A DNA stretch of 64,000 bases from Actinomycetota bacterium (GCA_003164955.1 PLRW01000247.1:81403-145402), one strand, 5' to 3'. Numbered from the stretch's first letter, positions 48,830 to 64,000 are shown. Notes: a model not told the origin generated them from the sequence alone. Program-made: numbers and translations.

Positions 48830-49607
48830 GTGCCGTCCCTTCGCCGTCGTCCGTGGCGCTGCCGGTGCGGGGAGACCGGCGTCGCAGGCGGACCGCTTCG
48901 CCGTTCTCCGCCAGCCGGCTCCGCGGGAGGGTTTTCCAGCCGGTGATCATCGAGGAGATCTCGCCGGATCGTTCCTCCCTATCGAACATCCAGGCCGAGT
49001 AGACGTGATGGATAACGAAGGCGATGGTCAGCCACATGACGATGTCGTGCAGGAGCCTTACCTCGGGGATCGGGAGCACCGTATAAACCCAGCCCGTCGC
49101 GGCCCACATCACGCCGTGGGTATTGGCCAGGGCTTCCAGCGCGAACCCGGTGAGAGCCTGCAGGGCGAACATCATGAAGAGCACGACGTAGGTCGCTCCG
49201 GCCAGGGGGTTGTGGCCGACCGCCGGGGGGCCTTCCAGCCGGCGGAACAGGTAGTACTCGAGGGTCGGCCGGATCTGCCGCCGCCGTTCCCGGCTGATGG
49301 GCAGGAGCTCGTCCCAGCGGGCCCACCGGTTCCCGGCGAAGGCCCAGTAAACCCGGGCGACGAGGACGGCCGCGAAAATCCAGCCGGTCGTGATGTGGAT
49401 GGTGCGGACGACCCCCATCGTGAACCCCGACGCGCTGGATGACCCGAACAGTGGATCAGCGATGTAGAAGCCGGTGACCGCCAGCACGATGATGCTGGCC
49501 ACCAGCATCCAGTGCAGGATGCGAACGGGAAGGTCCCATACCTTGACCCGGGCGATGTCACTGCCGTCGCCGGCCGTCACCGGGTGCTTCTCCTCGATGG
49601 CGGTCAC
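48816..49607 (-). CDS. Ni/Fe-hydrogenase b-type cytochrome subunit
   Basis: Start set at GTG 49607 (GTGA overlap with the large-subunit stop). VWDLPVRILHW..., four TM helices, conserved His residues. Unusually long Arg-rich C-terminal tail. Confidence 0.8.
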   Translation of the reverse strand: MTAIEEKHPVTAGDGSDIARVKVWDLPVRILHWMLVASIIVLAVTGFYIADPLFGSSSASGFTMGVVRTIHITTGWIFAAVLVARVYWAFAGNRWARWDELLPISRERRRQIRPTLEYYLFRRLEGPPAVGHNPLAGATYVVLFMMFALQALTGFALEALANTHGVMWAATGWVYTVLPIPEVRLLHDIVMWLTIAFVIHHVYSAWMFDREERSGEISSMITGWKTLPRSRLAENGEAVRLRRRSPRTGSATDDGEGTARAGR

Positions 49608-51334
49608 TGGACCTCGACCCTCAGCAGCTCGGTGCCGTCGGCGTCGAGAATGTGCGCGGCGCAGGCCATGCACGGGTCGAAGGAGTGGAGCGTGCGGAGA
49701 ATCTCCAGCGGCTGGGCCGGATTGTGGACCGGCGTTCCCACCAGCGCCGCCTCATAGGGGCCTCGCTGCCCGGAAGCGTCGCGGGGCCCCGCGTTCCAGG
49801 TCGTCGGGGCCACCACCTGGTAATTCGACACCTTGCCGTTGCTGATCTCCACCCAGTGCGACAGCGCCCCCCGTGGTCCCGCGTGCAGCCCGAAACCACG
49901 GGCGGCCGACGGCCAGGTGGCGGGATCCCACTTGCTGTCATCGAACGTCTGGGTGTCGCCCGACGCGATCCGCTCACGCAGCTGGGCCAGCACGGCCAGG
50001 GCTTGCTGAGCGACGACCACTGTCTCCACGCCACGGGCCAGCTGCCTGCCGAGCGTGGAGAACAGGGCGTCAGTCCCGAGATGGAGCTGGCTGAGAGTGC
50101 TGTCGATCAGGGTCTTCACCTGCGGACGCCCGTCCGCATAGCTGATGAGCATGCGAGCCAGCGGGCCTGTTTCCATCACCGCCCCGCCGTAGCGGGGAGA
50201 CTTCAGCCACGAGTAGCGCGAGCCGACGTCGAGGTGATCATACGGCGGGGCCGGCCCGGTATAGTTCGGATGCGTCTCGCCCTTATAGGGCTGGAGCGCC
50301 TGATCGTCCCCGCCGGAGTAGCTGTACCACGAGCGGGCCACCTCCTCGGTGAGCCGCATCGGGTCCAGCGACTCGACCCGGGTCAGGTCGCGATTGCGGA
50401 TCACCCCGGACGGGAAGAAGAGAGTTTCGTTGTTGAGCGCGCCGCCTCGCGGTGGATCACCGGTCGAGGAGAAGTCGCCGAAATCGAGGTAGTTGCCCGT
50501 CCCGCCGCCGATCTTGGCCCATTCCGGATAGTAGGAGGAAATGGCTACGAGGTCCGGCAGCAGTGCCTGGGTGACAAAGTCCAGGCCAGCCTGGAAGAGA
50601 TCCTGGAGCTGGGTGAGCCCTTCGTCGTTCAGGGCGTCGGCGCTGTTCAGGTCGATCGGCCGCGCGATCCCGCCGACCAGGTAAGTCTGGGGGTGCGGGT
50701 TCTTCCCGCCCAGGTAGGCCTGGACACGGATGAAATTCCGCTGGAACTGCAGGGCGTCCAGGTAGTGACTGACGGCCAGCAGGTCGACCTCGGGCGGGAG
50801 TTTGTAGGCGGGATGTCCCCAGTACCCGTTGGCGAAGGGGCCCAGGTTCCCGCCCTTGACGAAGGCCTGGAGCTTGCCCTGAACCCCCCGGAAATAGCTG
50901 GCCCCGGCGACCGGGTAATCCGAGATCGATGCCTGAATCGCGGCGGTCTTTACCGGGTCGGCGCGGAGCGCGGCGAGCACATCTACCCAGTCGAATGCCT
51001 GCAGTTGGTAAAAGTGGATCGTGTGGTCGTGGATGGTCTGACTGAGCGCGATCAGGTCGCGGATCAGCGACGCCGCGAGCGGCGGTGTGATCCCGAGTGC
51101 ATCCTCCACGGCCCGTACCGATGCCAGGGCGTGCACCGTGGTGCATACACCGCAGACTCGCTGGGCGAACAGCCATGCCTCGCGCGGGTCCCGCCCGAGG
51201 ATCACGTTCTCGATCCCCCGCCACATGGTGCCCGACGACCACGCATCGGTCACCCGGCCGCCCTCAACCTGCGCCTCCACCCGCAGGTGGCCCTCAATTC
51301 GCGTGACAGGATCCACGACAATCCGCTGGCTCAC
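49604..51334 (-). CDS. [NiFe] hydrogenase large subunit (group 1 / uptake type)
   Basis: 576 aa. DPVTRIEGH, QRVCGVCTTVH (N-terminal CxxC), C-terminal DPCMACAAH followed by a 15-aa cleavable extension. Confidence 0.95.
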   Translation of the reverse strand: MSQRIVVDPVTRIEGHLRVEAQVEGGRVTDAWSSGTMWRGIENVILGRDPREAWLFAQRVCGVCTTVHALASVRAVEDALGITPPLAASLIRDLIALSQTIHDHTIHFYQLQAFDWVDVLAALRADPVKTAAIQASISDYPVAGASYFRGVQGKLQAFVKGGNLGPFANGYWGHPAYKLPPEVDLLAVSHYLDALQFQRNFIRVQAYLGGKNPHPQTYLVGGIARPIDLNSADALNDEGLTQLQDLFQAGLDFVTQALLPDLVAISSYYPEWAKIGGGTGNYLDFGDFSSTGDPPRGGALNNETLFFPSGVIRNRDLTRVESLDPMRLTEEVARSWYSYSGGDDQALQPYKGETHPNYTGPAPPYDHLDVGSRYSWLKSPRYGGAVMETGPLARMLISYADGRPQVKTLIDSTLSQLHLGTDALFSTLGRQLARGVETVVVAQQALAVLAQLRERIASGDTQTFDDSKWDPATWPSAARGFGLHAGPRGALSHWVEISNGKVSNYQVVAPTTWNAGPRDASGQRGPYEAALVGTPVHNPAQPLEILRTLHSFDPCMACAAHILDADGTELLRVEVQ

Positions 51335-52491
51335 GTCCCCGCCTCACCGTCTGGCTGGTCGATCGTGCCGCCGGCCGGGGGATCGTCGATCGTGCCGTCG
51401 GCCGGGGTATCGCCGTTATCCGGCGGGGCCTGCCCGGCGGCCCGGCCGGCCAGGCGGTGCTGCACCGCCTTACCCACGCCGTGGACAGCGAAGAGGGCCG
51501 CCGTCCCGGCCACCACGGTGAGCCCGATGTCGTTAGCCGTGGCCTCGACCCCGAAACCGTGCACGTCCGTGAGCGTCGAATAGAACGGCGTCATGGTGTC
51601 CCAGAAGTCCGGCTCCGCACAGCCGACACAGCCATGGCCCGCCTGAACCGGCCAGCTCGTCCCGGAGTTCCATCGCGTCGTCGGGCAGCTGTTGAACGTG
51701 TCCGGCCCCTTGCAGCCCAGCCGGTACAGGCACCAGCCATTAACGTGCCCCTCGTCACCGAACGCGAGCGCGAACTCGCCCGCGTCGTAGTGCGCCCGGC
51801 GTTCGCAGGCGTCGTGGATGCGGTTGCCGTAGGCGAACAGCGGCCGGCCGAGCCCGTCTGCGGCGGGCAGCGAACCGAAGCTCAGGAAGTGCACGATCGT
51901 CGCCGCGATGTTGTCCGCCACCGGCGGGCAGCCGGAGACGTTCACGAGCGGCTTCCCGGCGATGACATCGCCCACACTGGCCGCGGACGTGGGATTGGGC
52001 CGGGCCTTGGGAATCCCGCCGAAGGTAGCGCACGTTCCGACCGCGAGAATAGCCGCGCAGCCGCGCGCGGCCTCGGTCAGTATGTCGGTGGCGGACCGGC
52101 CGCCGATCGTGCAGGCGCCGACATCACTCGGGATCGATCCCTCGACCACGAGCAGATAGCCCGGTTCCGCCATGGCGGACGACAGTGCCGCCTCGGCCTG
52201 GGTCCCGGCCGCTGCCATCACCGTCTCCTGGTAGTCGAGCGAGACCAGGTCCAGAATCAGCCGGCCGACGTCCGGGTCGCTCGAGCGCAGGAACGACTCT
52301 GTGCAGCCGGTGCAGCCCTGGAACTCCAGCCACACCACCCGCGGCTTGCCCGGCGCGGCCAGCGCTCTGGCGACGGTCGGCGTGAGGGACGGCGGGAGCG
52401 CCAGAGCGGCGGTGAGGGTCCCGCAGTAGACCAGGAACCGTCGCCGGCTCACCTTGTGCGCGCGAAGCGTCCCGAGAAACTCCTCGGACAT
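51331..52491 (-). CDS. [NiFe] hydrogenase small subunit, Tat-exported, C-terminal membrane anchor
   Basis: Start at MSEEF (ATG 52491). Tat motif SRRRFLVY. GCTGCTES, GTCA.FGG, GCPP, and distal-cluster Cys/His motifs. TM segment IGLTVVAGTAALFAVHGVG. Confidence 0.9.
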   Translation of the reverse strand: MSEEFLGTLRAHKVSRRRFLVYCGTLTAALALPPSLTPTVARALAAPGKPRVVWLEFQGCTGCTESFLRSSDPDVGRLILDLVSLDYQETVMAAAGTQAEAALSSAMAEPGYLLVVEGSIPSDVGACTIGGRSATDILTEAARGCAAILAVGTCATFGGIPKARPNPTSAASVGDVIAGKPLVNVSGCPPVADNIAATIVHFLSFGSLPAADGLGRPLFAYGNRIHDACERRAHYDAGEFALAFGDEGHVNGWCLYRLGCKGPDTFNSCPTTRWNSGTSWPVQAGHGCVGCAEPDFWDTMTPFYSTLTDVHGFGVEATANDIGLTVVAGTAALFAVHGVGKAVQHRLAGRAAGQAPPDNGDTPADGTIDDPPAGGTIDQPDGEAGT

Positions 52492-52821
52492 GTCGATATC
52501 GCACGGCTCAGAATCAGTATTTGCCTGGCCCTCGTCCTGCGGGGCAGGTAATGCGCCCGGCTTCCGGACGAATGGGAACCCGAGTGATACGACTCGCTGC
52601 GCCATCGCGCTCTCCCGTCAGGGGACGTCCTTGAACTAGGCCCCCCACCAAGGTCCGGAGCAACAGATGCCGTCGCCACAAGCGTCAGCAGGACGCCAGA
52701 AACGGGACATTTTTACGTTACGGTCACGTTACGCCAGCCCGGATATTCACACCAGGCCTGCACGACGAGCTTCCCGGTGCATGCGCGTGAGCGGTGCCGA
52801 TGGCGGCCGGCCGGTAGCCGG

Positions 52822-55341
52822 TCAGTGCGCCGGCAGGTAGACGCTGAACGTGGTCCCCTGGCCGAGGGTGCTTTCCACCGTGACGTGACCGCCGTGCAGT
52901 TCGGTGATCGCCTTCACGATGGACAGGCCCAGGCCGGTCCCCGGGAGCCCCGCGGTCCGTGCGTTGGAGGCCCGGACGAAGCGCCCGAAGAGCTGGCCGA
53001 TCTCTTCGGGCGGGATGCCGATACCGTTGTCGGCTACGTCGATCCGCCAGCCGCCACCGTCGTTGCCGCCGTCCCAGATCGCATCGACCCGGACCAGGCC
53101 GTTGGACCCGGAGAACTTGACCGCATTGACGATCAGGTTGTCGATGACCTGAGCCAGCCGCGCGCGGTCGGCCTGGATCAGCGGTCCCTCATCGGCGGAG
53201 AAGTGGACGGTGACCCCGTGCTTCGTCGCCCGGGCCGAGGCGGCGCGAGCCGCCTCGCCTGCCACCTCGGGGACGGACACCGGCTCAAGCTCCAGCGGAA
53301 CGGCCCCCGACTCGAGCTTGCTCAGCAGCAGCAGATCGCCGACCAGACGGAGCAGCCGGTGCGCGTTCCGCTCGATGATGTCGAGGAACTGGGCGCCGTC
53401 GGCGGTGAGCGCCTGGGTTTCCGCCCGCATCAGCTCGCTGAAGGACACGATCGACGTGAGCGGTGTGCGCAGCTCGTGCGACACGGTAGCGATGAAGACG
53501 GTTTTAGCGTGGTCGAGCTCGCGCAGCTTCTCGTTCTGCAACTCCAGCTGCCGTCGGCCCATCTCCGCCGCGTGGCGCCCGACGAGCTCGGCCTCGAGCA
53601 ATCGCTCGCGCTGCTCCTCCAGCTGCTTGCGCTCCGTTATGTCCCCGACCATCCAGAGATCACCGCGGTAGCGGCCGCCGACCGCCACCGGCCAGTAGGT
53701 ACATTCCAGGGTGCGGCCGTCCGCGCATGCGATCTGCTCACCCGCCACCGGCTGACGTGCGCTGAAAGCCTTGGCCGTGCGGCGGACGTATTCGTCCGGA
53801 TCGGCGAACATCTGCTTGATCCGGAGCACCAGGTCTCTGGCGGCCGTCCCCACGAGATGGTCCGGTGATTCCATCCCGTGCATGGTGGCGAAACTCTGGT
53901 TGACGTGGGTGATCCGGCCCTCCTCGTTGGTGAAGAGCACGCCGGGGATCGCGTTCGTGATCAGGCAGTTGAGGCGCTCGGTCTGGTCGGCTAGACCAAG
54001 GCGGGCGGCCTGTTCGGCCGCCAGCAGCCGTTCCCGCTCGGCTGCCGTCCGCTTGACATCGGAGATGTCGGTGAGGGTCACCAGGAATCCCAGCGGGGCC
54101 GCGTCGGCGGCACCAAGCGCCATCGCGGAGGCCTGGACCCAGATGTCGCCGCCGTCCGCCGAGCGCAGCCGGAATTCGGTTCGCGTCTCCGACTTCCCGG
54201 CGCGCATATCACGCGCCACCCGTGCACGGTCATCGGGAAGGACGAGATCCAGCCAGTCCATCACAGGAGCATCGTCCGGCCGGACCCCGGTGATCGCGCA
54301 CCAGCGATCGTTGACGAAGACGGTCCGTCCGTCGGCACCGGCTTGCATGATACCGACCGGCGCCAGCTGGGCGAGCAGCCGGAAGCGTTCTTTGGTCTCG
54401 GCGACGGCCGCCTCGGAATGCTCGAGCTCGGCGAGGTCCCGGAAGAACCCGCAGAAATAAGTCTCGCCGTCCCGGGTCAGTTCCGCGGCCATCAGCTCGA
54501 CGCTGCGTTCCGTGCCGTCGGCGCACAGCAGCGGCACCCGCACCCGGCCGGCGTACTTACCCCGGTCACCCGTCGCCAGGTGCTGTTCGGTGAACGCCAC
54601 GAACGCGGCACGTTCCCGTTCGGGGATCAGGAGACCCGTCATCTCCTCGCCCAGCACGTCGTCGCGCCGGTAGCCGGACAGTTCCTCGGCCGCGGGGTTG
54701 AACGCCACGAGCCGCCGGCCGGAGTCCATGGCGATGATCGCATCGGGCGAGCCGGCGATCAGCGTCTGGGCCAGCGCCTGCTGATCGGCGAGGCCGGCTG
54801 TATCGTTGGCGTGGCGGATCTGGGCCGCGACGGCGGCGGCCACGGCGTTCAGCACGGCCCGGGTTTCGGTGTCCCACTCCGGAGTGTCCCCGACGAGGGC
54901 GATCGCGCACAGGCACTGACCGCCGACCGGCGCGGAATATGCCACCAGGGCGCTCGGGCCGGGGCCCCCCGGTCCCAGCGGCGCCTGGACGGAGCCGTCG
55001 CCCGCCACGCCGTCAGGGGATGTGCTCAGCGCGCCGACCCGGCTGAGCAGCGTCCGGTCACCGGCGGCATCGGCCGGATGGGCCGCCAGCACCACCGGTG
55101 GCGGCCCGGTCCCCGGCTGAAAGGCCAGTGCGCAGCGGCCGGAAAAGGCCGTGACGAGCCGGGCGAGAACCACCGGCAGGGCGTCGAGCGAGTCGTTCTG
55201 CAGGACCTGCTCAATCGCGAACGCCACGACAGCGACCGGTGCGTCCGGCCGGCTCTGATGGTTCACGGCCAGATCCGGGGCCGGCCTGGATCGAGATGCC
55301 CCCATGGCGTCGCGCTGTCCCCCACCCCTGTTACTGCCCAT
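52822..55341 (-). CDS. multi-sensor (GAF + 3 PAS) histidine kinase
   Basis: 839 aa. Three PAS cores (DAIIAMD..., PVGIMQA..., IPGVLFTN...). HisKA VSHELRTPLTSI. HATPase GTGLGLSIVK. No response regulator adjacent. Confidence 0.85.
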   Translation of the reverse strand: MGSNRGGGQRDAMGASRSRPAPDLAVNHQSRPDAPVAVVAFAIEQVLQNDSLDALPVVLARLVTAFSGRCALAFQPGTGPPPVVLAAHPADAAGDRTLLSRVGALSTSPDGVAGDGSVQAPLGPGGPGPSALVAYSAPVGGQCLCAIALVGDTPEWDTETRAVLNAVAAAVAAQIRHANDTAGLADQQALAQTLIAGSPDAIIAMDSGRRLVAFNPAAEELSGYRRDDVLGEEMTGLLIPERERAAFVAFTEQHLATGDRGKYAGRVRVPLLCADGTERSVELMAAELTRDGETYFCGFFRDLAELEHSEAAVAETKERFRLLAQLAPVGIMQAGADGRTVFVNDRWCAITGVRPDDAPVMDWLDLVLPDDRARVARDMRAGKSETRTEFRLRSADGGDIWVQASAMALGAADAAPLGFLVTLTDISDVKRTAAERERLLAAEQAARLGLADQTERLNCLITNAIPGVLFTNEEGRITHVNQSFATMHGMESPDHLVGTAARDLVLRIKQMFADPDEYVRRTAKAFSARQPVAGEQIACADGRTLECTYWPVAVGGRYRGDLWMVGDITERKQLEEQRERLLEAELVGRHAAEMGRRQLELQNEKLRELDHAKTVFIATVSHELRTPLTSIVSFSELMRAETQALTADGAQFLDIIERNAHRLLRLVGDLLLLSKLESGAVPLELEPVSVPEVAGEAARAASARATKHGVTVHFSADEGPLIQADRARLAQVIDNLIVNAVKFSGSNGLVRVDAIWDGGNDGGGWRIDVADNGIGIPPEEIGQLFGRFVRASNARTAGLPGTGLGLSIVKAITELHGGHVTVESTLGQGTTFSVYLPAH

Positions 55342-55483
55342 TCCGCGGCATCGTCGCGCCGACCGGACGCGGCTCCCCCCGCCGCACTAAACCGTTACTA
55401 CCCGATTACGGATCGTTAAACCAGCCCAGCCGTCGATGAGCGGCCGCCGACGGGCCCGCACGGGTGCGTTGGCCCTGGCCGGA

Positions 55484-55750
55484 GTTCAGATATACGTCAA
55501 CTGACGGATGTTTTGCTCTGCAACTTGCATGACACTTTCTTTGCAAGTGACGGCGACAGCGCAGGGAGGCCCGGACGTTGGACGCTGGCCGGCTGCGGGA
55601 AAGCTTCGCCCAGGTCGCGGCCCAGGGTGACGAGCTACCCCTGTTCTTCTACTCCGACCTGTTCCTCAAGCATCCGGAGGTGCGGGGCATGTTCCCCGTC
55701 TCGGGGGCGGCGCAGCGCAGCCACCTCGTCCACGCGCTGGCGAAGATCGT
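55484..55750 (+). repeat. copy A of an inverted duplication: flavohaemoglobin promoter region + first ~58 codons (globin fragment from TTG 55578)
   Basis: Aligns by eye to the reverse complement of 63601-63261. One 63-nt stretch has a single mismatch, and about 74 nt are present only in copy B. Encodes LDAGRLRESFAQVAAQGDELPLFFYSDLFLKHPEVRGMFPVSGAAQRSHLVHALAKIV. Confidence 0.85.
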
Positions 55751-57071
55751 GGAAGCTGGGCCATGTCCGCTCGCCCAGCGGCGGGTGGCGGTAGAAGTTC
55801 GGCGTTTGGTCGAAATCCTCGTAGGTGCGGTGGAAGACCGGGGTCGCGGAGGATGCGGCAGGCGGCACGATCCAGGTCCAGTCGGCCGGGCACGCCCGGC
55901 CGTGCCGTTCCTCCCGCTCTATGTGCTGGAGAAAGCGGACCGACTCGGTGTGATGGTCGGTGATCGTGACGCCGGCGGTGCTGAACGAATCAAGGACCGC
56001 AACGTTGAGCTCGGTCATTGCCCTGTCTTTCCACAGGTTCCGGTCGCTGGTCACCGAAAGGCCCATATGCGCGGCGATCACCGCCAGCTGGTCGTAACGG
56101 CCACTGTCGCCGAGGTCACGCGATCCGATCTCGGTGCCCATGTACCAGCCGTTGAACGGCGCGGCGGGGTAACAGATGCCGCCGATCTCCAGGTACATGT
56201 CGCTGATGACCGGCACGGCGTACCATCGCAGCCCGAGGTTGGCGAACCAGCGAAACTCCGGATGCTCGATCGGTATCTCGAGTACCGCGTCGGCGGGTAT
56301 CTCGTGCACCGTGACGGGCGCGCCCGCCTCCTGCACGAGCAACGGAAGTACGTCGAACCGGCCGGCTGGCCGCCTGCCCGGCCAGCCGAGATCGTAGGCA
56401 AGCCGGGTGAGGCCGGTATTCGCCGGGTCCCCGATGACGGCGCCGTAGCCTGTCTCGTAGCCCGCGTACCGAACGAGCTGGGAGTTGAGGATCCGCGGTC
56501 CTGGCCGATCCGGCGCGTCCGGGGCGAACACGGTGATCACCGGCCGGATCCGGCCACCGTTAGTCGCCTCGCGCAGGTGCGTGACCGACTCGGCGGCGAT
56601 GTCCGGTGCCGCGGTGACCTCGCGGCAGTCTCGCACCCGGAGGCTCCGCCAGTAGAGCCGCCCGATACATCGCGAACTGTTCCGCCAGGCAACACGCGCG
56701 CCAAATTCCAGCTCAGCCGGGGTGTGCCAGTACGTGCCCGACGTCTCGATCCGGCGGCGAACGTGCCAGAGCCGCCGGTCGGGGGCCCCGAGGCGGTTCT
56801 CGCGGTAGAACAGCGTGATGAACTGCTCGGCGCTGGCCAGCAGGCTGTCGAGGGCGGACGGGCCATAGCCTGCCGAGGACCACTCAGCGGGCATCGGGGC
56901 CACGTCAGCGGCGAAGCCGGTCCCAGCTTCGCCCCCAGCCACCGGGCAGGCACTCGGGGGCGGGAACGCCGGCGACCGATCGCCCGGCTCCGGACCGAGG
57001 GCGCGGTCCCGCGGCCGGCCCCGGCCAGGAATACGCCAGCGCGAATCCGAAGGAACTTGGTTCAGGTCCAC
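55635..57071 (-). CDS. nos: bacterial nitric-oxide synthase oxygenase domain protein, with ~65-aa N-terminal and chimeric C-terminal extensions
   Basis: 478 aa. Haem-thiolate motif WRNSSRCIGRLYW, plus ...RPVITVF..., FNGWYMGTEIGSRD, ITDHHT, CPADWTWIVPP.S.S.TPVFH. GTG start has GGGAGG 5 nt upstream. Confidence 0.9.
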   Translation of the reverse strand: MDLNQVPSDSRWRIPGRGRPRDRALGPEPGDRSPAFPPPSACPVAGGEAGTGFAADVAPMPAEWSSAGYGPSALDSLLASAEQFITLFYRENRLGAPDRRLWHVRRRIETSGTYWHTPAELEFGARVAWRNSSRCIGRLYWRSLRVRDCREVTAAPDIAAESVTHLREATNGGRIRPVITVFAPDAPDRPGPRILNSQLVRYAGYETGYGAVIGDPANTGLTRLAYDLGWPGRRPAGRFDVLPLLVQEAGAPVTVHEIPADAVLEIPIEHPEFRWFANLGLRWYAVPVISDMYLEIGGICYPAAPFNGWYMGTEIGSRDLGDSGRYDQLAVIAAHMGLSVTSDRNLWKDRAMTELNVAVLDSFSTAGVTITDHHTESVRFLQHIEREERHGRACPADWTWIVPPAASSATPVFHRTYEDFDQTPNFYRHPPLGERTWPSFHDLRQRVDEVAALRRPRDGEHAPHLRMLEEQVGVEEQG

Positions 57072-57212
57072 GGAGACCTCCCCGGTAGCCCCGAGGTGCT
57101 GCGCCCCTCAATAGCGGGCAGCCAGCGACTTGCGGCTACCTCCGATGGCAGCACGATCGTGTACTACCAGCCTGGGTGGTCATCCTGCCCTTGCCTTGAC
57201 GTCTACCTTGCA

Positions 57213-57323
57213 CCCCAGGTCACGGCACCCCAGGTCGCGGCGCAAGCGGGCACGGCAGGTCGCGGCGCAAGCGGGGGCCAGCGGCGGCCGGCAGATCGCA
57301 GCGCAAGCGGGGGCCAGCGGCGG
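57213..57323. repeat. nested direct repeats between the SARP stop and the NOS start
   Basis: CCCCAGGTCRCGGC x2 (57213, 57228). CAGGTCGCGGCGCAAGCGGG x2 (57231, 57256). GCGCAAGCGGGGGCCAGCGGCGG x2 (57265, 57301). Confidence 0.85.
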
Positions 57324-57332
57324 TACGCCGGA

Positions 57333-60300
57333 CTAGGAAACGCGGATGGCGAAGGCGGGGTCGATGGTCTCCATGCGTATCCGCACTGACGCTGCCTCTG
57401 GCAGGCCGAGCCGTTCGAAGATGTCCAGCGCCTGCCTGAAGACAATCCGCGCCGTATCGGACCCCTGGGTGCTGAGTGTGGATTCCGCGATTCCCTCGAG
57501 AATCTTGCCTTCTTCGTACGGGTCGCCGATCTCCCTGGCCAGCCGGAGGGCGGCGTTGCAATGATCAAGTGCCTCGCCGAACCGGCCCGATCCGCGATAT
57601 ATGTCGGCAATCAGGCGCAGCGCGATCAGCTGCTGGGACAGGTTGCCGACATCCTCGGCGATCTCCCGCGCCTTCTGGTGATGAATAAGCGCCTCGTCGT
57701 CGCGTGCCGCGCTCTGGTAGATGGCACCGATGTCATTCAGCACCTCGGCTTCATCCGGAAGGTCTCCGATGTCACGGTATATCGCAAGCGCCTGCCGGAA
57801 GGCGGCAAGCGCTTCCTCGCAGCTGCCCTTGTAACGGTAGACGCTGCCGATGTTCTGGTGCAGGATCGCCTCGTTCTGCGCTCCGCCTATCTCGCGGAAT
57901 ATCTCCAGGGACTTCTGGTAGGCGTCGAGCGCGTCCCGATGGTAACCGTTGTACAGATGCACCCGGCCCAGGTTGTTGAGCACCTTCGCCTCCCCGCGCC
58001 GGTCGCCGGTCTCACGGTAGAGCGAAAGCGCGTCATGCATGTGGGTATTCGCCTCGGGGTAACGCCCCAGCTGCCAGCAGGCGACCCCGGAATGGCTCAG
58101 GGTGTCGGCCACTCCGCGCTGGTCCGCGGCGGCACCGTAAAGAATCTGTGCCTCGGAGAAATAGGCGAGTGCCTCACGGGCACGGGCTGTGCGCAGGTGA
58201 GCCATGCCTATCTGGTCGAGAGACCGGGCCTCGCCTCTCCGGTCGGACCGCGACCGGTAGATCGCTGCGGCCTCCTCAGCCAGGGAAATCGCCGGCTCGT
58301 GCTGCCCGGTCTGCTGCTGCACCGCGCTGAGCGCCAGCGCCGCCCGCGCGATCCTGGCCGGATCAGCGATATCGCGGCTGGCCTGCAGGGCAACGGTATG
58401 AGCTGTGGTCGCCTCATCCCAGTACGCGCTGATCTCCATGAAGTCAGCCAGCAGGTAGATGAGGTCGGCGCACTTCTGCTTCCATTCGTGCCGGCCCGCA
58501 TAGCGCGCGGCCTGCAGGATGTTGCGCCACTCCGATTCCAGCCAGCCGGCTGCGTCTTCCTGCGTACCGAGGGCCGGGCTGCCGGCCGGCATCTCGCCAG
58601 CCTCCTCGGCCACCCGGAGCGGGAACGGGTGCAGGACCCGGTCGGCCAGGCCGGCTGTGTGCAGGTAGTAATCAAGGAGCCTGCTCACGGCCTGCCTCTG
58701 CTCCGCCTCGGAATCATCACGCGCGGCGCGAGTGGCCGCATAGCCGCGGATCAGGTCGTGGAAGCGGAACTGATCGCCGGGGGCCGGCGCGAGCAGGTGA
58801 TGATCGAGCAGGGCAACGAGCGCCTTCTCCGCCTCGGCGAGGGTACAGCCGCCCAGAGCGGCCGCGGTGGGCAGGCTGAGGTAAGCGCACGGACTGACGC
58901 CCAGCCGCCGGAAGAACCTCTGATGGTCGGGCTCCAGCGCCCGGTAGGACAGATCGAAGGCGGCTATCACCTCCGGGTCCGCCGCGCCGGTGTCAGCCGG
59001 CCACGCCCGGGACTGCGACAGTTCGTCGATCAGGGCACCGAGACCGGGCGGGCCGTCCCGCGCGACCCGGCGGGCGGTGAGCTGGATCGCGAGCGGCAGC
59101 CGCCCGCACAGTCTTACGGCCGCCGCGATCTGATCCGCGTCAGCGGCCCGGCTCTCGCCGGCCAGCCGCCGGAACAACGTGATGGCCTCGCCGACGGACA
59201 GCACGTCGAGGGTCAGCGAACGGGCGCTGCCGAAGTCGGGAAGCCTCCGCCGGGTGGTGATCAAGATCAGGCACTGGCCCGCCACCGGCAGGAGCGGGCC
59301 GATCTGGTCATGCCCGGCCGCGTCGTCCAGGATCACGACGGCGCGGCGACGGCTCAGGTGAGCCCGCCACAGCGCGGTGCGCTCGCCGATGGTTTCCGGT
59401 ATCTGCGCGGCCGGCACGGACAGCATCTGGAGCAGGCGGTGCAGTGCCTCGGCCGGGTCGAGCGAAGGGCTCCCGGGATCATGGGAATGAAGGTTGAGGT
59501 AGAGCATCCCGTCCGGGTACTGCCCCGAGACCAGGCGAGCCGCGCGGACGGCCAGCGTGGTCTTTCCCACGCCCGGCATGCCCTCGATAATGGCGATCCC
59601 GGGGATGCTGCCGTGCTCCCCGGTGAGCAGCCCGAGTTCTTCGTCGCGGCCCACGAACTCCGCCGTCTCGGGCGGAAGGGTGTCCGGCGATGCCGCCCGG
59701 GCCGAGCGCCGGCCGGAGGACCTGACGGCGAGCCCCGGGTCGTGGTCGAGGATGCGCTGATGCAGACCGGACAGCATCGCCCCCGGTTCTGTGCCCTGCT
59801 CCTCGATCAGGCGGCTGCGGGTTTGCCGGTAAAGGCTCAGTGCGTCGGCCGGCCTACCGCTCCGGAAAAGAGCGGTCATCTGGTGGGCGGCGAGCGTTTC
59901 ATCCAATGGGTACTGAACCAGCAGATAGTTGAGTTCACCCACCAGATCGGCGTGCCGGCCAAGCTCCAGCTCGCACGCGACTCGCTCGAGAATGGCCGCC
60001 CGGCGCTCCTCCTCGAGAGCGTCCCGCATTCGCGCTACCCAGTCGCCGCGGATCCCGCCCAGCGCCTGGCCCCGCCAGAGCCCGTCCGCCTCGCGCAGCA
60101 GCCCGGCTGCCTGTTCGTAGTCGCCGCTTGCGGCGACGGCATCCGCCTGCCGGCGCAGCCGGCGGAACTGATGCACGTCGACCGCCTCGGGATCGACTTC
60201 CAGCATGTAGCCCTGCGCACGCCCCACCAGATGGACGCTGTCTGCCACGGCCTGCCGGAGTGACGCCCGGAGCCTGGCCACGTAAACCGTAAGGCTATCC

Positions 60301-61009: not shown

Positions 61010-61279
61010 ATGAAAACTCATCAGTGGATACTGCCTGTCGTCATGCAGACGGGAATCGGCCCGGCCGAGAGCCCAGCGAGAACAGTGGGAACCAATCCGC
61101 GGGGCCGCAGGGCGAGCGGGATTCTCATTCTGGCTCTCGCGCTCGGCGGCTTCGGCGCCGGGGCCGCGGCAACATCAGGCCAGGTGAGTGCCCATCACAC
61201 GGCGGGCAATGCTCGCCCCGGAGCCAGCGCTCACCTGACGAGCGCCGGTCACGTTATCAGCAATCCCTGGATGCTCTGA
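61010..61279 (+). CDS. candidate small secreted peptide (very uncertain)
   Basis: 89-aa ORF in lower-GC DNA. GRRASGILILALALGGFGAGAAATSGQVSA looks like a signal peptide and leaves a 28-aa His-rich tail, HHTAGNARPGASAHLTSAGHVISNPWML. Weak RBS (AAGGGA). Confidence 0.3.
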   Translation: MKTHQWILPVVMQTGIGPAESPARTVGTNPRGRRASGILILALALGGFGAGAAATSGQVSAHHTAGNARPGASAHLTSAGHVISNPWML

Positions 61280-61586: not shown

Positions 61587-62285
61587 CTACCCGCGTCCTC
61601 TCAACGGTGCAGATGCGTCGCCATTAATCGCCCGCGGCCCGCCAGGTGGCACAGCTTGCGCTGCGTGCGCTGCTTGCGCTGCTTCCTGTAGTGAGGCTGC
61701 TTCCTTACGCTCCCACTCCTCGATACCGCGCAGGATTCCCTCGGTGTAAGCGCGCAAGTGCGCCCGGTAGACGTCGCTGTAGGTGCGCAGATAGGCCAGT
61801 TCCGCCTGCGCGGCCTGCTGCTTTTCGTCGGACTGTGGCGCCGCCGCCACGTTCAGCGCCGAAACCGCTGCCTCGCGGGCCTTGGTGTGCGCGTCTTCCA
61901 GCAGCATGTCCGAGTACTGCTGGGCCTCCTGCATGATCTCATCGCGGCGCCGCTTGGCCTCCAGGGTGAGCCGGCTGCTGTAATCCTGCGCATCCGCCAC
62001 GTACTGGTCGGCGGTGACCTGCGCGGTTGACAGTATCCGCACCGCGTGTACGTGCGCGTCTGCCTCACCGAACAGCACCGCCTGTGGCTCACCATCGCTC
62101 TCTCCGGCGATGATCCGGCGGCGGAGTCGCTGAACTTCCTGCCACAGCGACGTCCGTTCGTTCATCAGATGCACGAACTCGGCGTGCACCGCGCTCAGGA
62201 ACCCCCGGACGGCCTCTTCTTCGTAGCCACGCCGCCCCAGCCGCGACGTGGGAAACGTCACGGTCTGCAACTCTTCGGGGGTCAT
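61587..62285 (-). CDS. DivIVA domain-containing coiled-coil protein
   Basis: Start at MTPEELQTVTFPTSRLGRRGYEEEAVRGFL (ATG 62285), the canonical DivIVA N-terminal motif. 29 nt downstream of the flavohaemoglobin stop. Confidence 0.75.
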   Translation of the reverse strand: MTPEELQTVTFPTSRLGRRGYEEEAVRGFLSAVHAEFVHLMNERTSLWQEVQRLRRRIIAGESDGEPQAVLFGEADAHVHAVRILSTAQVTADQYVADAQDYSSRLTLEAKRRRDEIMQEAQQYSDMLLEDAHTKAREAAVSALNVAAAPQSDEKQQAAQAELAYLRTYSDVYRAHLRAYTEGILRGIEEWERKEAASLQEAAQAAHAAQAVPPGGPRAINGDASAPLRGRG

Positions 62286-62314
62286 CCTGCTCTTGTCGTC
62301 GAACCATGCTGTGC

Positions 62315-63433
62315 TCAAGGCTCGCTCCAGCCGAAATCCTCGATATGTATCTGATCCTGCGGCACGCCGGCTGAGGCCAGCCGAGCGGCAGCGTCCCGGA
62401 CCATCTTGGTCGGGCCGGCCAGGTAGGCGTCGTGCCCTGACCAATCGCCGTGCCGGGCCACCACATCCGGGAGACTGCCGGTCTCGCCGGCGAACTTGGG
62501 ATCGGCCGACACGGCTGGCGTAATGGTCAGCCACGAGTACTGGGCGCCCATCTTCTCCAGGCTTTCCAGGTCATAGAGTCCGTCTGCGGTCCGCGCGCCA
62601 AAGAACAGGTGTACCTTCGGCGGCCGCGGCAGCGAGGCCACCTGGTCGAGAATGGCTTTCAGGGGGGCCAGTCCGGTACTTCCCGCCACGAGCAAGAGGT
62701 CCCGGCCGGAGACGGGCTGACTCAGCGTAAGGACCCCGACGGGAGGTCCCAGCCTGAGCTCGGTGCCAGCGACCGTGCTGCTGGTAAGCGCCATGCTTAC
62801 CGCACCGCCATCGATCAGCCGGATATGGAACTCCAGCAGCCCGTCCTGACGCGGCGCGTTCGCTATCGAGTAGTAGCGCCACAGCCTTGGGCGGCTGGAG
62901 GATTCGATCGCCACGGACTGCCCCGGCAGATAGTCCATTCGCGGCTCCGGCTGAACAAACAGCACGGAAACGTCGAAAGACCTCGCCTCGTGAGCCACGA
63001 CCGTACCCCGCCACCAGGGCGGCCGCAGTCGCTCGTCCGCGCTTGCCGCCGCGGTCATGACGGAGCCGATGAGCGCGTAGGCCGCCTTCCAGTCGGCGGC
63101 CAGCTCCGGCGTCCAGGCCGGTCCGGAGAAATGTTCCAAGGTCGCCAGCAGACTGGCGCCTACGGCGTCATAATGCCCGGCGACAGCGCCGAACTTCCGG
63201 TGATCACGGCCCAGTCCCTCAAGGAACACGGTCAGATCATCAACGCTGTCTACCTGCGAAACGATCTTCACCAGCGCGTCGACGAGGTGGCTGCGCTGTG
63301 CCGCCATCGAGACGGGGAACATGCCCCGCACCTCTGGATGCTTGAGGAACAGGTCGGAGTAGAAGAACAGTGGTAGCTCGTCACCGTGTACCGCGACATG
63401 GGCGAAGCTTTCCCGTAGCCGGGCAACGTCCAA
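62315..63433 (-). CDS. flavohaemoglobin-like protein (globin + FNR-type FAD/NAD(P) reductase; candidate NO dioxygenase)
   Basis: Globin features FFYSDLF (Tyr B10), AAQRSHL (Gln E7), GRDHRKFGV (proximal His). Reductase features RYYSIAN (RxYS) and VAGSTGLAP. Start uncertain: TTG 63433 corresponds to the start in copy A, and the track ORF extends to 63577. Confidence 0.85.
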   Translation of the reverse strand: MDVARLRESFAHVAVHGDELPLFFYSDLFLKHPEVRGMFPVSMAAQRSHLVDALVKIVSQVDSVDDLTVFLEGLGRDHRKFGAVAGHYDAVGASLLATLEHFSGPAWTPELAADWKAAYALIGSVMTAAASADERLRPPWWRGTVVAHEARSFDVSVLFVQPEPRMDYLPGQSVAIESSSRPRLWRYYSIANAPRQDGLLEFHIRLIDGGAVSMALTSSTVAGTELRLGPPVGVLTLSQPVSGRDLLLVAGSTGLAPLKAILDQVASLPRPPKVHLFFGARTADGLYDLESLEKMGAQYSWLTITPAVSADPKFAGETGSLPDVVARHGDWSGHDAYLAGPTKMVRDAAARLASAGVPQDQIHIEDFGWSEP

Positions 63434-63601
63434 CGGGTCCCGCCTCTCTGTGCCATCGCCACCAGCTGGCGGATCCGGCGACGCTGGCCCGCGGCCTGAG
63501 GATCCGCTCACCGGTCGCATGCCGGATCGCACCATCACTTGCAGGGCAAGTCTCATGCAAGTTGCAGAGCAAGACATCCGTCAGCTGACGGATATCTGAA
63601 C
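63261..63601 (-). repeat. copy B (functional locus) of the inverted duplication
   Basis: Reverse complement aligns with 55484-55750. The palindrome ACTTGCA-N12-TGCAAGT is conserved in both copies (55523-55548 and 63537-63562). Confidence 0.85.
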
Positions 63602-63831
63602 CCGGGCCACGGCCGGCGCGGCTTCGCCGGGCTGTCGATGGCGCACCGGCTGTGGTGATCCAGTCAGCGCCGCCAAGGCGCCCGGCGCTTTCGCCGTCAC
63701 ATCATCAACCGCCGCCAATGGTCACGTGGAGGTGATCGCCGCGGCTCACATAGCAGCAGATTTTTGGCAGCCCGCACCCGGCTGGTGGCGGCCGGAGTGG
63801 TACCAGAAAGCGGTCCAGGTGATACCAGAAA

Positions 63832-63862
63832 GCGGAGAGCCCCGCTGAACGGGGCTCTCCGC
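63832..63862. terminator. intrinsic terminator-like hairpin downstream of the DUF397 gene
   Basis: GCGGAGAGCCCCG-CTGAA-CGGGGCTCTCCGC, a 13-bp perfect stem. The minus strand continues CTTTCTGG. Confidence 0.55.
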
Positions 63863-63905
63863 CTCTTCTGATCGACAGCTACTACGAGCAGGATGCTACA
63901 GCGCT

Positions 63906-64000
63906 TTATTTCCTGCCGAAGCTATCGAATTCTCCCTTTTGTGCGCCTCCGAGAAATGCATGCCATTCGTCCGGTGTAAATCGGAGAACTGGCCCTCCGG
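63906..64000 (-). CDS. DUF397 (BldB-like) domain protein, C-terminal fragment at the window edge
   Basis: My reverse translation gives ...GGPVLRFTPDEWHAFLGGAQKGEFDSFGRK-stop. W.AFL...K.GEFD is the typical DUF397 C-terminus. Confidence 0.6.
   Translation of the reverse strand, partial: GGPVLRFTPDEWHAFLGGAQKGEFDSFGRK

Follow-up and report, generated by a model that had tools for sequence, protein, structure and literature searches.

The nitric oxide synthase (NOS) gene nos in the 64,000-nt stretch of actinomycete DNA analyzed here (the window) runs into an inverted copy of the control region and first 58 codons of hmp, the flavohemoglobin gene of the same locus. This orphan copy (copy A) arose long ago as an inverted segmental duplication that took in the hmp promoter/operator, the leader and 58 codons, and it lies tail-to-tail with nos. 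Sequence comparisons across approximately 25 genomes indicate that purifying selection constrains its 63-nt promoter/operator core. We regard the structural and evolutionary part of this explanation as very likely to be correct. The full explanation, which unites the ancient inverted duplicate, flips of the interior, decay, a by-product tail of NOS, a retained core and an antisense function, is given a slightly better than even chance.

The Inverted Duplicate

The first-pass annotation had read positions 55484–55750 as a diverged inverted duplicate of the hmp 5′ region, and this was borne out by a repeat search and a pairwise alignment. The features concerned are:

55470–55750, plus strand: copy A, orphan inverted copy of the hmp upstream region and the 58 first codons (repeat search, alignment, metagenome assembly L081)
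63261–63614, minus strand: copy B, functional hmp upstream region (element, 73-nt leader, RBS) and codons 1–58
62315–63433, minus strand: hmp, intact flavohemoglobin gene (Globin, FAD_binding_6 and NAD_binding_1; Pfam), TTG start at 63433
55564–55580, plus strand: RBS-like GGGAGG (55564–55569) and TTG start of the globin remnant (55578)
55578–55751, plus strand: remnant of the globin N-terminus (58 codons), a pseudogene fragment that runs on as a 603-aa shadow ORF antisense to nos
63462–63534, minus strand: leader segment, shared by copy B with the complete A copies of L082 and L083 and deleted from the window copy A
55635–57071, minus strand: nos ORF, 478 aa, oxygenase domain at residues 75–429 (Pfam)

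In the pairwise alignment the two copies are approximately 89% identical in opposite orientation; copy A points into the 3′ end of nos and is devoid of the 73-nt leader segment of copy B. Two pairs of inverted arms were recovered by the repeat search, one of 175 nt with 92% complementarity (55576–55750 and 63261–63435) and one of 111 nt with 79% (55443–55553 and 63532–63642). The element of copy A (55484–55556) aligns with copy B at 65 of 73 identical positions, and the RBS together with the coding part (55557–55750) at 172 of 194. The longest perfect runs shared by the copies, 35 and 27 nt, lie inside the 89%-identical arms and account for the 63-nt stretch with a single mismatch reported earlier, which maps to 55641–55703. 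The other components ascribed to the duplicate, namely ACTTGCA-N12-TGCAAGT, GGGAGG, the TTG start and 58 globin codons, were all found. Two details required adjustment: homology at the proposed left end (55484) holds, with the outer limit likely to lie slightly further left at ~55470, and the extra segment of copy B, previously put at about 74 nt, is present between element and RBS and counts 73 nt (63462–63534).

The junction is not an assembly artefact, because the independent metagenome assembly L081 carries the same structure and is 99.8% identical to window positions 59093–55281, which extend from the SARP gene through nos and copy A to the start of the next gene. Insertion of nos into an hmp paralog was ruled out, since the repeat search found no similarity to the rest of a second hmp past nos.

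Neighboring Genes

Further genes of the locus are:

61587–62330, minus strand: DivIVA-domain gene (Pfam), in the interior between the copies, overlapping the hmp stop codon
57333–60575, minus strand: AfsR/SARP-type regulator, 1080 aa (Trans_reg_C, BTAD, NB-ARC, TPR; Pfam), in the invertible interior
52822–55341, minus strand: PAS histidine kinase, 839 aa (Pfam), divergent from copy A and lineage-specific, with unrelated genes at this place in relatives

The domain architecture identifies the hmp product as a flavohemoglobin, for which NO dioxygenase activity is predicted. Beyond copy A, a triple-PAS histidine kinase gene and then the genes for the small and large subunits of a [NiFe]-hydrogenase occupy 49604–55341 on the minus strand. 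Among the related loci examined this kinase–hydrogenase neighborhood recurs in L081 only, and the kinase was rejected as a conserved partner of nos because no homolog lies beside nos in any relative. A Mycobacterium-like synteny (clpB, Rv0385 flavohemoglobin, Rv0386) was likewise rejected, the 839-aa protein being a PAS histidine kinase and the 1080-aa protein a SARP. The presumed small regulator “f3,” divergent from hmp, was discarded as its translation looks non-coding and gene callers call nothing there.

Three small features were recorded in addition. An ORF of 89–94 aa on the opposite strand between divIVA and the SARP gene (61010–61279, plus strand) is annotated as a gene in both L082 and L083; for want of any Pfam match, it was rejected as a recombination factor. 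Starting from the TTG of the globin remnant, a 603-aa ORF (55578–57389, plus strand) extends antisense through all of nos. This ORF is probably not a gene, because it has no Pfam match and constitutes the stop-poor shadow frame of a high-GC gene. Finally, in the SARP–nos intergenic region, just upstream of nos (57228–57323), a 35-nt unit (CGGCAGGTCGCGGCGCAAGCGGGGGCCAGCGGCGG) is repeated three times in tandem with partial overlap; these repeats could be direct-repeat binding sites for the adjacent SARP.

Distribution and Decay

The closest relatives of the window are MAGs of uncultured Streptosporangiaceae, and all relatives are MAGs or metagenome contigs. The same junction recurs in 11 or more related genomes or contigs of Streptosporangiaceae, and an orphan element follows nos in ~30 contigs. 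L082 and L083 retain full-length A copies of 355–372 nt with element, leader, RBS, start codon and 58 codons, so the ancestral duplicate was complete. Losses differ by lineage and comprise the 73-nt leader in the window, the leader to codon 20 in L001, L002, L003 and L005, all sequence past codon 12 in L007, and the entire coding part in L016. In an outgroup-rooted neighbor-joining tree of NOS, all A-bearing types form one clade with L011/L012 as sister. The trees were built by neighbor joining from one or two proteins of MAGs and metagenome contigs, so how many events took place, and in which sequence, can be stated only provisionally. On this comparative basis, the duplicate is old and common to a clade of soil actinomycetes.

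Two loci, L131 (position 3114) and L136 (position 4437), have a degenerate element directly after nos, yet in the tree their place is among convergent (type IV) genomes. Independent deletions of hmp–divIVA, rather than membership of the A-copy clade, seem to explain them. In L017–L029, which represent more distant Streptosporangiaceae and other actinomycetes, nos and an hmp of ~40% identity are immediate convergent neighbors, and the linkage of nos and hmp is therefore old. One MAG (L003 and L030) has two nos loci.

Arrangement Types and Inversion

The ~60 informative loci (REARRANGEMENTS) are put together from element–hmp–divIVA, SARP–nos, and element–g–f1–f2 as three separate modules; the genes of the last are described below. 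One further feature anchors the window in this scheme:

63829–64000, unstranded: conserved flank F, intergenic between the WhiJ-like gene f2 and hmp, which places the window in type I

In type I (window, L001, L003, L005, L082–L084, L101, L109), f1 and f2 adjoin element–hmp, and nos at the other end of the block is followed by the A copy and unrelated genes. In type III-A (L009, L015, L133, L140) it is the truncated copy, not the intact one, that adjoins f2, and the same contrast exists on the g side between L016 and type II (L007, L087, L103, L114). Both interior orientations are thus present among sister genomes relative to conserved flanks, and flipping the interior between the inverted copies converts one member of each pair into the other. 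Past the A copy, nearly every genome has its own set of genes. L011/L012 possess a co-directional block without an A copy, and here flank F lies beside the 3′ end of nos.

Most likely, a co-directional hmp–divIVA–SARP–nos block would have been inverted beside the flank, with duplication of one breakpoint region by staggered breaks. The ancestor would resemble L011/L012, and a single staggered-break inversion around the hmp 5′ region would yield type I directly; duplication followed by deletion or flips is an alternative route to the same end state. The staggered-break model comes from Drosophila, where inverted duplications of unique sequence flank the inversions (Ranz et al., 2007; PMC1885836). 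As in that model, non-repetitive breakpoint sequence (promoter and 5′ coding region) is found inverted at both segment ends, one copy being functional and the other a fragment, and the segment is inverted relative to the sister arrangement. The duplicate is unique and non-mobile, and the sister L011/L012 in the neighbor-joining tree is single-copy with the segment opposite relative to the flank. Unlike the Drosophila cases, the event is bacterial, spans 7.5 kb instead of a chromosomal scale and duplicated one breakpoint only, and its mechanism is deduced from the L011/L012 arrangement.

Once established, the inverted copies would have served as substrates of homologous recombination, by which the interior flipped at least twice in the clade, giving the other types, with occasional gene conversion. 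Inversions mediated by inverted repeats similarly involve repeats a few hundred bp long, segments that related genomes carry in either orientation, and signs of gene conversion. Here, however, a gene's own control region takes the place of mobile elements or rRNA operons, and in contrast to inversion within populations the flips separate species-level genomes.

The earlier suggestion that the copies could invert the 7.5-kb segment is thus supported by genome comparison on the evolutionary scale, where both orientations occur, but not as switching within populations, since the two assemblies of the window organism (window and L081) share one orientation and no recombinase is present. Pfam searches of the block and of L082 and L083 revealed no recombinase or invertase gene in the block, the only candidate being an rve_3 fragment ~10 kb away in L083, and no transposase lies between the copies. 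Inversion would therefore depend on general recombination. A programmed switch, in which the cassette flips appreciably within populations and, with crossovers located in the shared coding arm, swaps the hmp upstream copy with or without the 73-nt leader, would agree with the two orientations among sister genomes, with a perfect 35-nt run as a possible recombination substrate and with hmp and nos being, by the structure, intact in either state. Known invertons and shufflons likewise have inverted repeats flanking invertible DNA, with gene products intact in both states. Unlike those systems, this locus has no recombinase gene in or beside the block, its repeats are long and 8–20% diverged, unlike invertase sites, and orientation is fixed within subclades. 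We consider such a switch extremely improbable.

The Chimeric NOS Tail

The nos product contains a complete NO_synthase oxygenase domain (PF02898, E = 3.7e-145, profile positions 3–357 of 362). Its C-terminus is encoded within copy A:

55635–55750, minus strand: chimeric NOS tail, residues 441–478 and stop codon, antisense of globin codons 20–58

It had been claimed that nos no longer stops where bacterial NOSs normally end, reads through the antisense of the globin fragment, and acquires residues ~441–478 as a by-product. The read-through is correct, and the tail peptide does recur in the shadow (antisense) frame over copy B. The notion of a normal end, however, was not upheld: in 17 related genomes the conserved part of NOS ends with “...PNFYRHP” at approximately residue 430 (the Pfam domain end is ~429), and the tails past this motif differ in every lineage (11–100 aa), so there is no single normal end.

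The same tail occurs in L001, L002, L003, L005, L082, L083 and several metagenome contigs, and every ortholog that has it also carries the duplication with the same junction (GTGGAAGCTGG), in line with the first-pass interpretation. In L013, nos reaches the remnant via a 57-aa linker, and in the clade-II genomes L009, L015 and L016 the duplicate is present and nos stops ahead of the remnant. The fusion is therefore attributed to a secondary deletion inside an older duplication, which would have joined nos to the decaying coding remnant and produced the near-neutral 38-aa tail.

The globin codon-position pattern is lost in the A-copy remnants, which have 18/17/6 substitutions at codon positions 1/2/3 versus 35/27/61 in functional copies. 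In the NOS frame, the tail shows 12 synonymous and 29 non-synonymous changes, with ~23% synonymous expected by chance; at this omega of ~0.74, no purifying selection was detected in the NOS frame. Pairwise, the remnants have diverged by 5.5–16.5%, ~0.75-fold the 11–25% seen at the 4-fold degenerate sites of these genomes. Because the tail evolves near-neutrally and NOS tails are hypervariable in the family, it appears to be a tolerated near-neutral by-product. As in stop-codon loss or overprinting, NOS has gained 38 residues from the antisense strand of another gene's codons; it differs in that the new peptide is without detectable purifying selection.

That the antisense-globin tail was instead kept as a useful C-terminal peptide of NOS is very unlikely. 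Such a function would fit a nos frame that runs on across the remnant in every clade-I genome, as it also does in L013 notwithstanding the linker, as well as a core “(A/V)PHLRMLE.QV” conserved across A copies (HVPHLRMLE.QV in all but the window). However, the shadow frame opposite codons is naturally stop-poor in high-GC genes, as is the case here, and the conserved core is the stretch most similar to copy B. Moreover, the ORF ends vary among genomes (with a TAG inside the remnant, a TGA inside the palindrome, or an earlier stop), clade-II genomes have the duplicate yet terminate nos ahead of it, and omega is indistinguishable from neutral. No selection on the tail was detected.

The Regulatory Element

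Both copies of the element combine a palindrome with an oriented, promoter-like half:

55488–55513, unstranded: palindrome 1 of copy A, AGATATACGTCAACTGACGGATGTTT, a degenerate match to the 26-bp consensus AGACATCCGTCAG/CTGACGGATGTCT
63572–63597, unstranded: palindrome 1 of copy B, AGATATCCGTCAGCTGACGGATGTCT
55519–55548, plus strand: promoter-like half of copy A, TGCAAC (ECF-type −35-like)-N16-TTTGCAAG, containing ACTTGCA-N12-TGCAAGT (55523–55548)
63537–63566, minus strand: promoter-like half of copy B, TGCAAC-N16-CCTGCAAG, including ACTTGCA-N12-TGCAAGT
L004 11400, L007 11827, L015 14717, L016 3447 and many L08x–L14x loci: modules upstream of gene g

ACTTGCA-N12-TGCAAGT occurs exactly twice in the 64 kb (55523–55548 and 63537–63562) versus 0.07 times expected by chance, and the second palindrome, ATCCGTCAGCTGACGGAT, is likewise found at the two copies only (0.05 expected). 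The invariant core of 15 functional hmp upstream regions reads CGTCAnCTGACnGATGTCT ... TGnAAnTTGCA ... GCAA. Its first part belongs to the G+C-rich 26-bp palindrome (13+13), in which copy A has a C>T change at a site invariant in 15/15 functional copies; its second part is oriented and consists of TG(C/A)AAC, 16 nt and C(G)TGCA. ECF-sigma promoters have AAC at −35 and CGT at −10 (PMC5758882, PMC6767563), and the oriented half resembles them, a resemblance that may serve as a lead: TG(C/A)AAC is conserved, and the −10 “CGT” is found in part of the copies only (CGTGC in clade III and the g copies, CCTGC or TTTGC in the window). A consensus scan detected no sigma-70 promoter in copy A or copy B. 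No known RNA family was found over either copy, Rfam giving only a chance snoRNA match elsewhere (E = 0.46). A role of copy A as terminator or 3′ hairpin was rejected, because nos-sense RNA over it folds no better than shuffled sequence (z = −0.32) and the terminator scan yielded only a weak 5-bp stem on the wrong strand.

In 1.6 Mb the element was found solely at the hmp, nos-3′ and g positions, and a dispersed regulon motif was therefore rejected. In L004, L007, L015, L016 and many metagenome contigs, the module precedes gene g in the same orientation. This gene encodes an anti-sigma-like HATPase_c_2 protein and adjoins f1, a LAL regulator, and f2, a WhiJ-like regulator (HTH_31 and DUF5753); the grouping resembles the whiJ-type clusters of complex actinomycetes (PMC4255298). 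Since the palindrome-plus-promoter module also precedes g, the element defines a small regulon.

Three observations concern the surroundings of the element. Its copies mark nearly all rearrangement breakpoints of the region, and the 26-bp palindrome might be a candidate fragile site. Extra palindrome-only copies lie 100–250 nt beyond the A copy in L005 (10629–10647) and L013 (7940–7958); they carry the ATATACG...GTTT variant also seen in the window copy A, a hint that the past of that end was more complicated. In the aligned hmp 5′ leaders, GATCCGG...CCGGATC inverted repeats are conserved across distant genomes, which suggests a structured leader. This leader seems dispensable, as neither the functional hmp of L007 nor the window copy A contains it.

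The first-pass annotation reasoned that a promoter in copy A, if still active and NO-responsive, would repress NO synthesis through NO-dependent antisense transcription; NO-responsiveness is not supported by the sequence. The NsrR operator of Streptomyces coelicolor has 23 bp with two 11-bp inverted repeats around one base and terminal AA/TT (PMC4432287). Compared with this described architecture, no NsrR-type operator was found at the 26-bp element, the block contains no Rrf2 gene, and there is no sigma-70-like promoter. NO-responsiveness is therefore an assumption, indicated by none of the features examined, and assignments of the promoter class and regulator are guesses. The locus shares with the NsrR–hmpA circuit of S. 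coelicolor (PMC4432287) a flavohemoglobin gene preceded by a long palindromic operator; it differs in the 13+13 G+C-rich architecture versus 11-1-11 with AA/TT ends, in having no Rrf2 gene nearby, and in its neighboring regulators, which are of SARP, WhiJ-like XRE and LAL types.

Constraint on the Orphan Core and a Possible Antisense Promoter

In nine A copies, sites that are invariant in functional copies of clades I and II had changed at 16 of 396 site-copies versus 49 of 171 at variable sites (Fisher p = 1e-15, counting copies as independent though they are related), and sites invariant in all 15 functional copies at 3 of 270. In five A copies, changes affected 4 of 220 element-invariant sites (1.8%) versus 56 of 545 in the adjacent globin remnant (p = 2e-5, under the same counting), where ~10–12% of sites have changed. 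Across 25 unique A and 31 unique B copies, 3.3% of conserved sites changed versus 34% of variable ones, and both halves of the element are conserved. The RBS, start codon and globin codons next to the A core decay or are deleted. As the A copies were found by motif search, fully decayed copies would be missed; this ascertainment bias is limited, because 18 of 20 co-directional loci keep a recognizable A element. The 63-nt core, composed of the 26-bp palindromic operator followed by the ECF-like TG(C/A)AAC-N16-C(G)TGCA, would thus have stayed under purifying selection. The window copy is among the more eroded: besides the lost leader, 7 of 57 core positions differ from copy B, two of them at sites invariant in clade I and II functional copies. 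These differences include GATGTCT>GATGTTT and GAGACT>GACACT; TGCAAC and the spacing are kept.

Copy A could alternatively be a pure relic, that is, a functionless, decaying pseudo-promoter reset by gene conversion from copy B and by crossovers during flips. In the window, L001 and L016 the A copy does match its own B copy best at variable sites, with 6 of 109 sites differing between the two window copies and 14–16 of 109 between the window copy A and other A copies, and gene conversion could contribute to the apparent constraint. The lineage-specific deletions of RBS, start codon, leader and codons, together with the two altered invariant sites of the window copy, also suit a relic. However, conversion should restore element and coding part alike and does not readily account for a preserved element beside a decaying globin part that is contiguous with it (1.8% versus 10–12% change at B-constrained sites; p = 2e-5). 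In five of eight genomes the A copy is not most similar to its own B copy, and both element halves are conserved in 25 A copies. On balance we consider a relic unlikely, although it has to be taken seriously.

An operator without antisense RNA would also explain conservation. In this case, copy A would be a protein-binding site only, acting as a roadblock or 3′ boundary for nos, as a decoy, as a loop anchor with copy B, or as an operator co-opted by the gene beyond, here the PAS histidine kinase. The 26-bp palindrome is the most conserved part, its sequence being conserved beyond mere complementarity, and in the window it lies 147–172 nt upstream of the divergent kinase gene. On the other hand, the oriented, non-palindromic promoter-like half is conserved in the A copies as well, unrelated genes, often in convergent orientation, follow copy A in different genomes, and nos-sense RNA over copy A shows no special structure. 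A binding site of this sort is quite improbable.

The interpretation we favor is that copy A acts as an antisense promoter, as the first-pass annotation had suggested for the case of retained promoter activity; the constraint on its core supports this indirectly. The orphan copy would still bind the regulator and RNA polymerase of the hmp promoter and would fire convergently into nos, which would be damped whenever hmp is induced. That copy A is indeed a functional antisense promoter into nos is a serious possibility, if one that falls somewhat short of an even chance. The more specific proposal of a selected, hard-wired feedback is put forward tentatively and is more probably wrong than right in some part. 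According to this proposal, the signal inducing hmp would launch nos antisense transcription and throttle NO synthesis, the promoter having been duplicated in the inversion and kept across a Streptosporangiaceae clade, in a cassette invertible without a recombinase. Like known cis-antisense or convergent promoters, which act by transcriptional interference or antisense RNA, copy A is a promoter-like module at the 3′ end of a gene that points into it. Because it duplicates the promoter of a gene with a linked function, co-regulation would be built in. Unlike those, it is predicted from sequence. In the literature searched, no description was found of an antisense promoter that arose by duplication of a partner gene's promoter.

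Implications for NO Metabolism

Bacteria that produce NO endogenously with a NOS must keep this production under tight control, and to our knowledge little is known about how actinomycetes control NOS-derived NO. The ingredients of the locus are already known singly, namely inversion scars with inverted duplications, flips mediated by repeats, promoters in antisense orientation and extensions through stop loss. Their combination in a bacterial NO-metabolism locus, with a captured promoter copy apparently kept by selection, is unusual. The locus constitutes a clear bacterial inversion scar of unique sequence that later became a recombination substrate. Many genomes date it, and display side by side the neutral decay of a coding remnant, the de novo extension of a protein by antisense codons, and the selective retention of an operator/promoter. 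The value of the finding depends on antisense transcription being real; if the orphan copy is inactive, the locus would still usefully illustrate how modules are shuffled at a palindromic regulatory element. If the proposal is true, a natural promoter copied from the NO-consuming partner gene would lie antisense to the NO-producing gene and form a concrete circuit.
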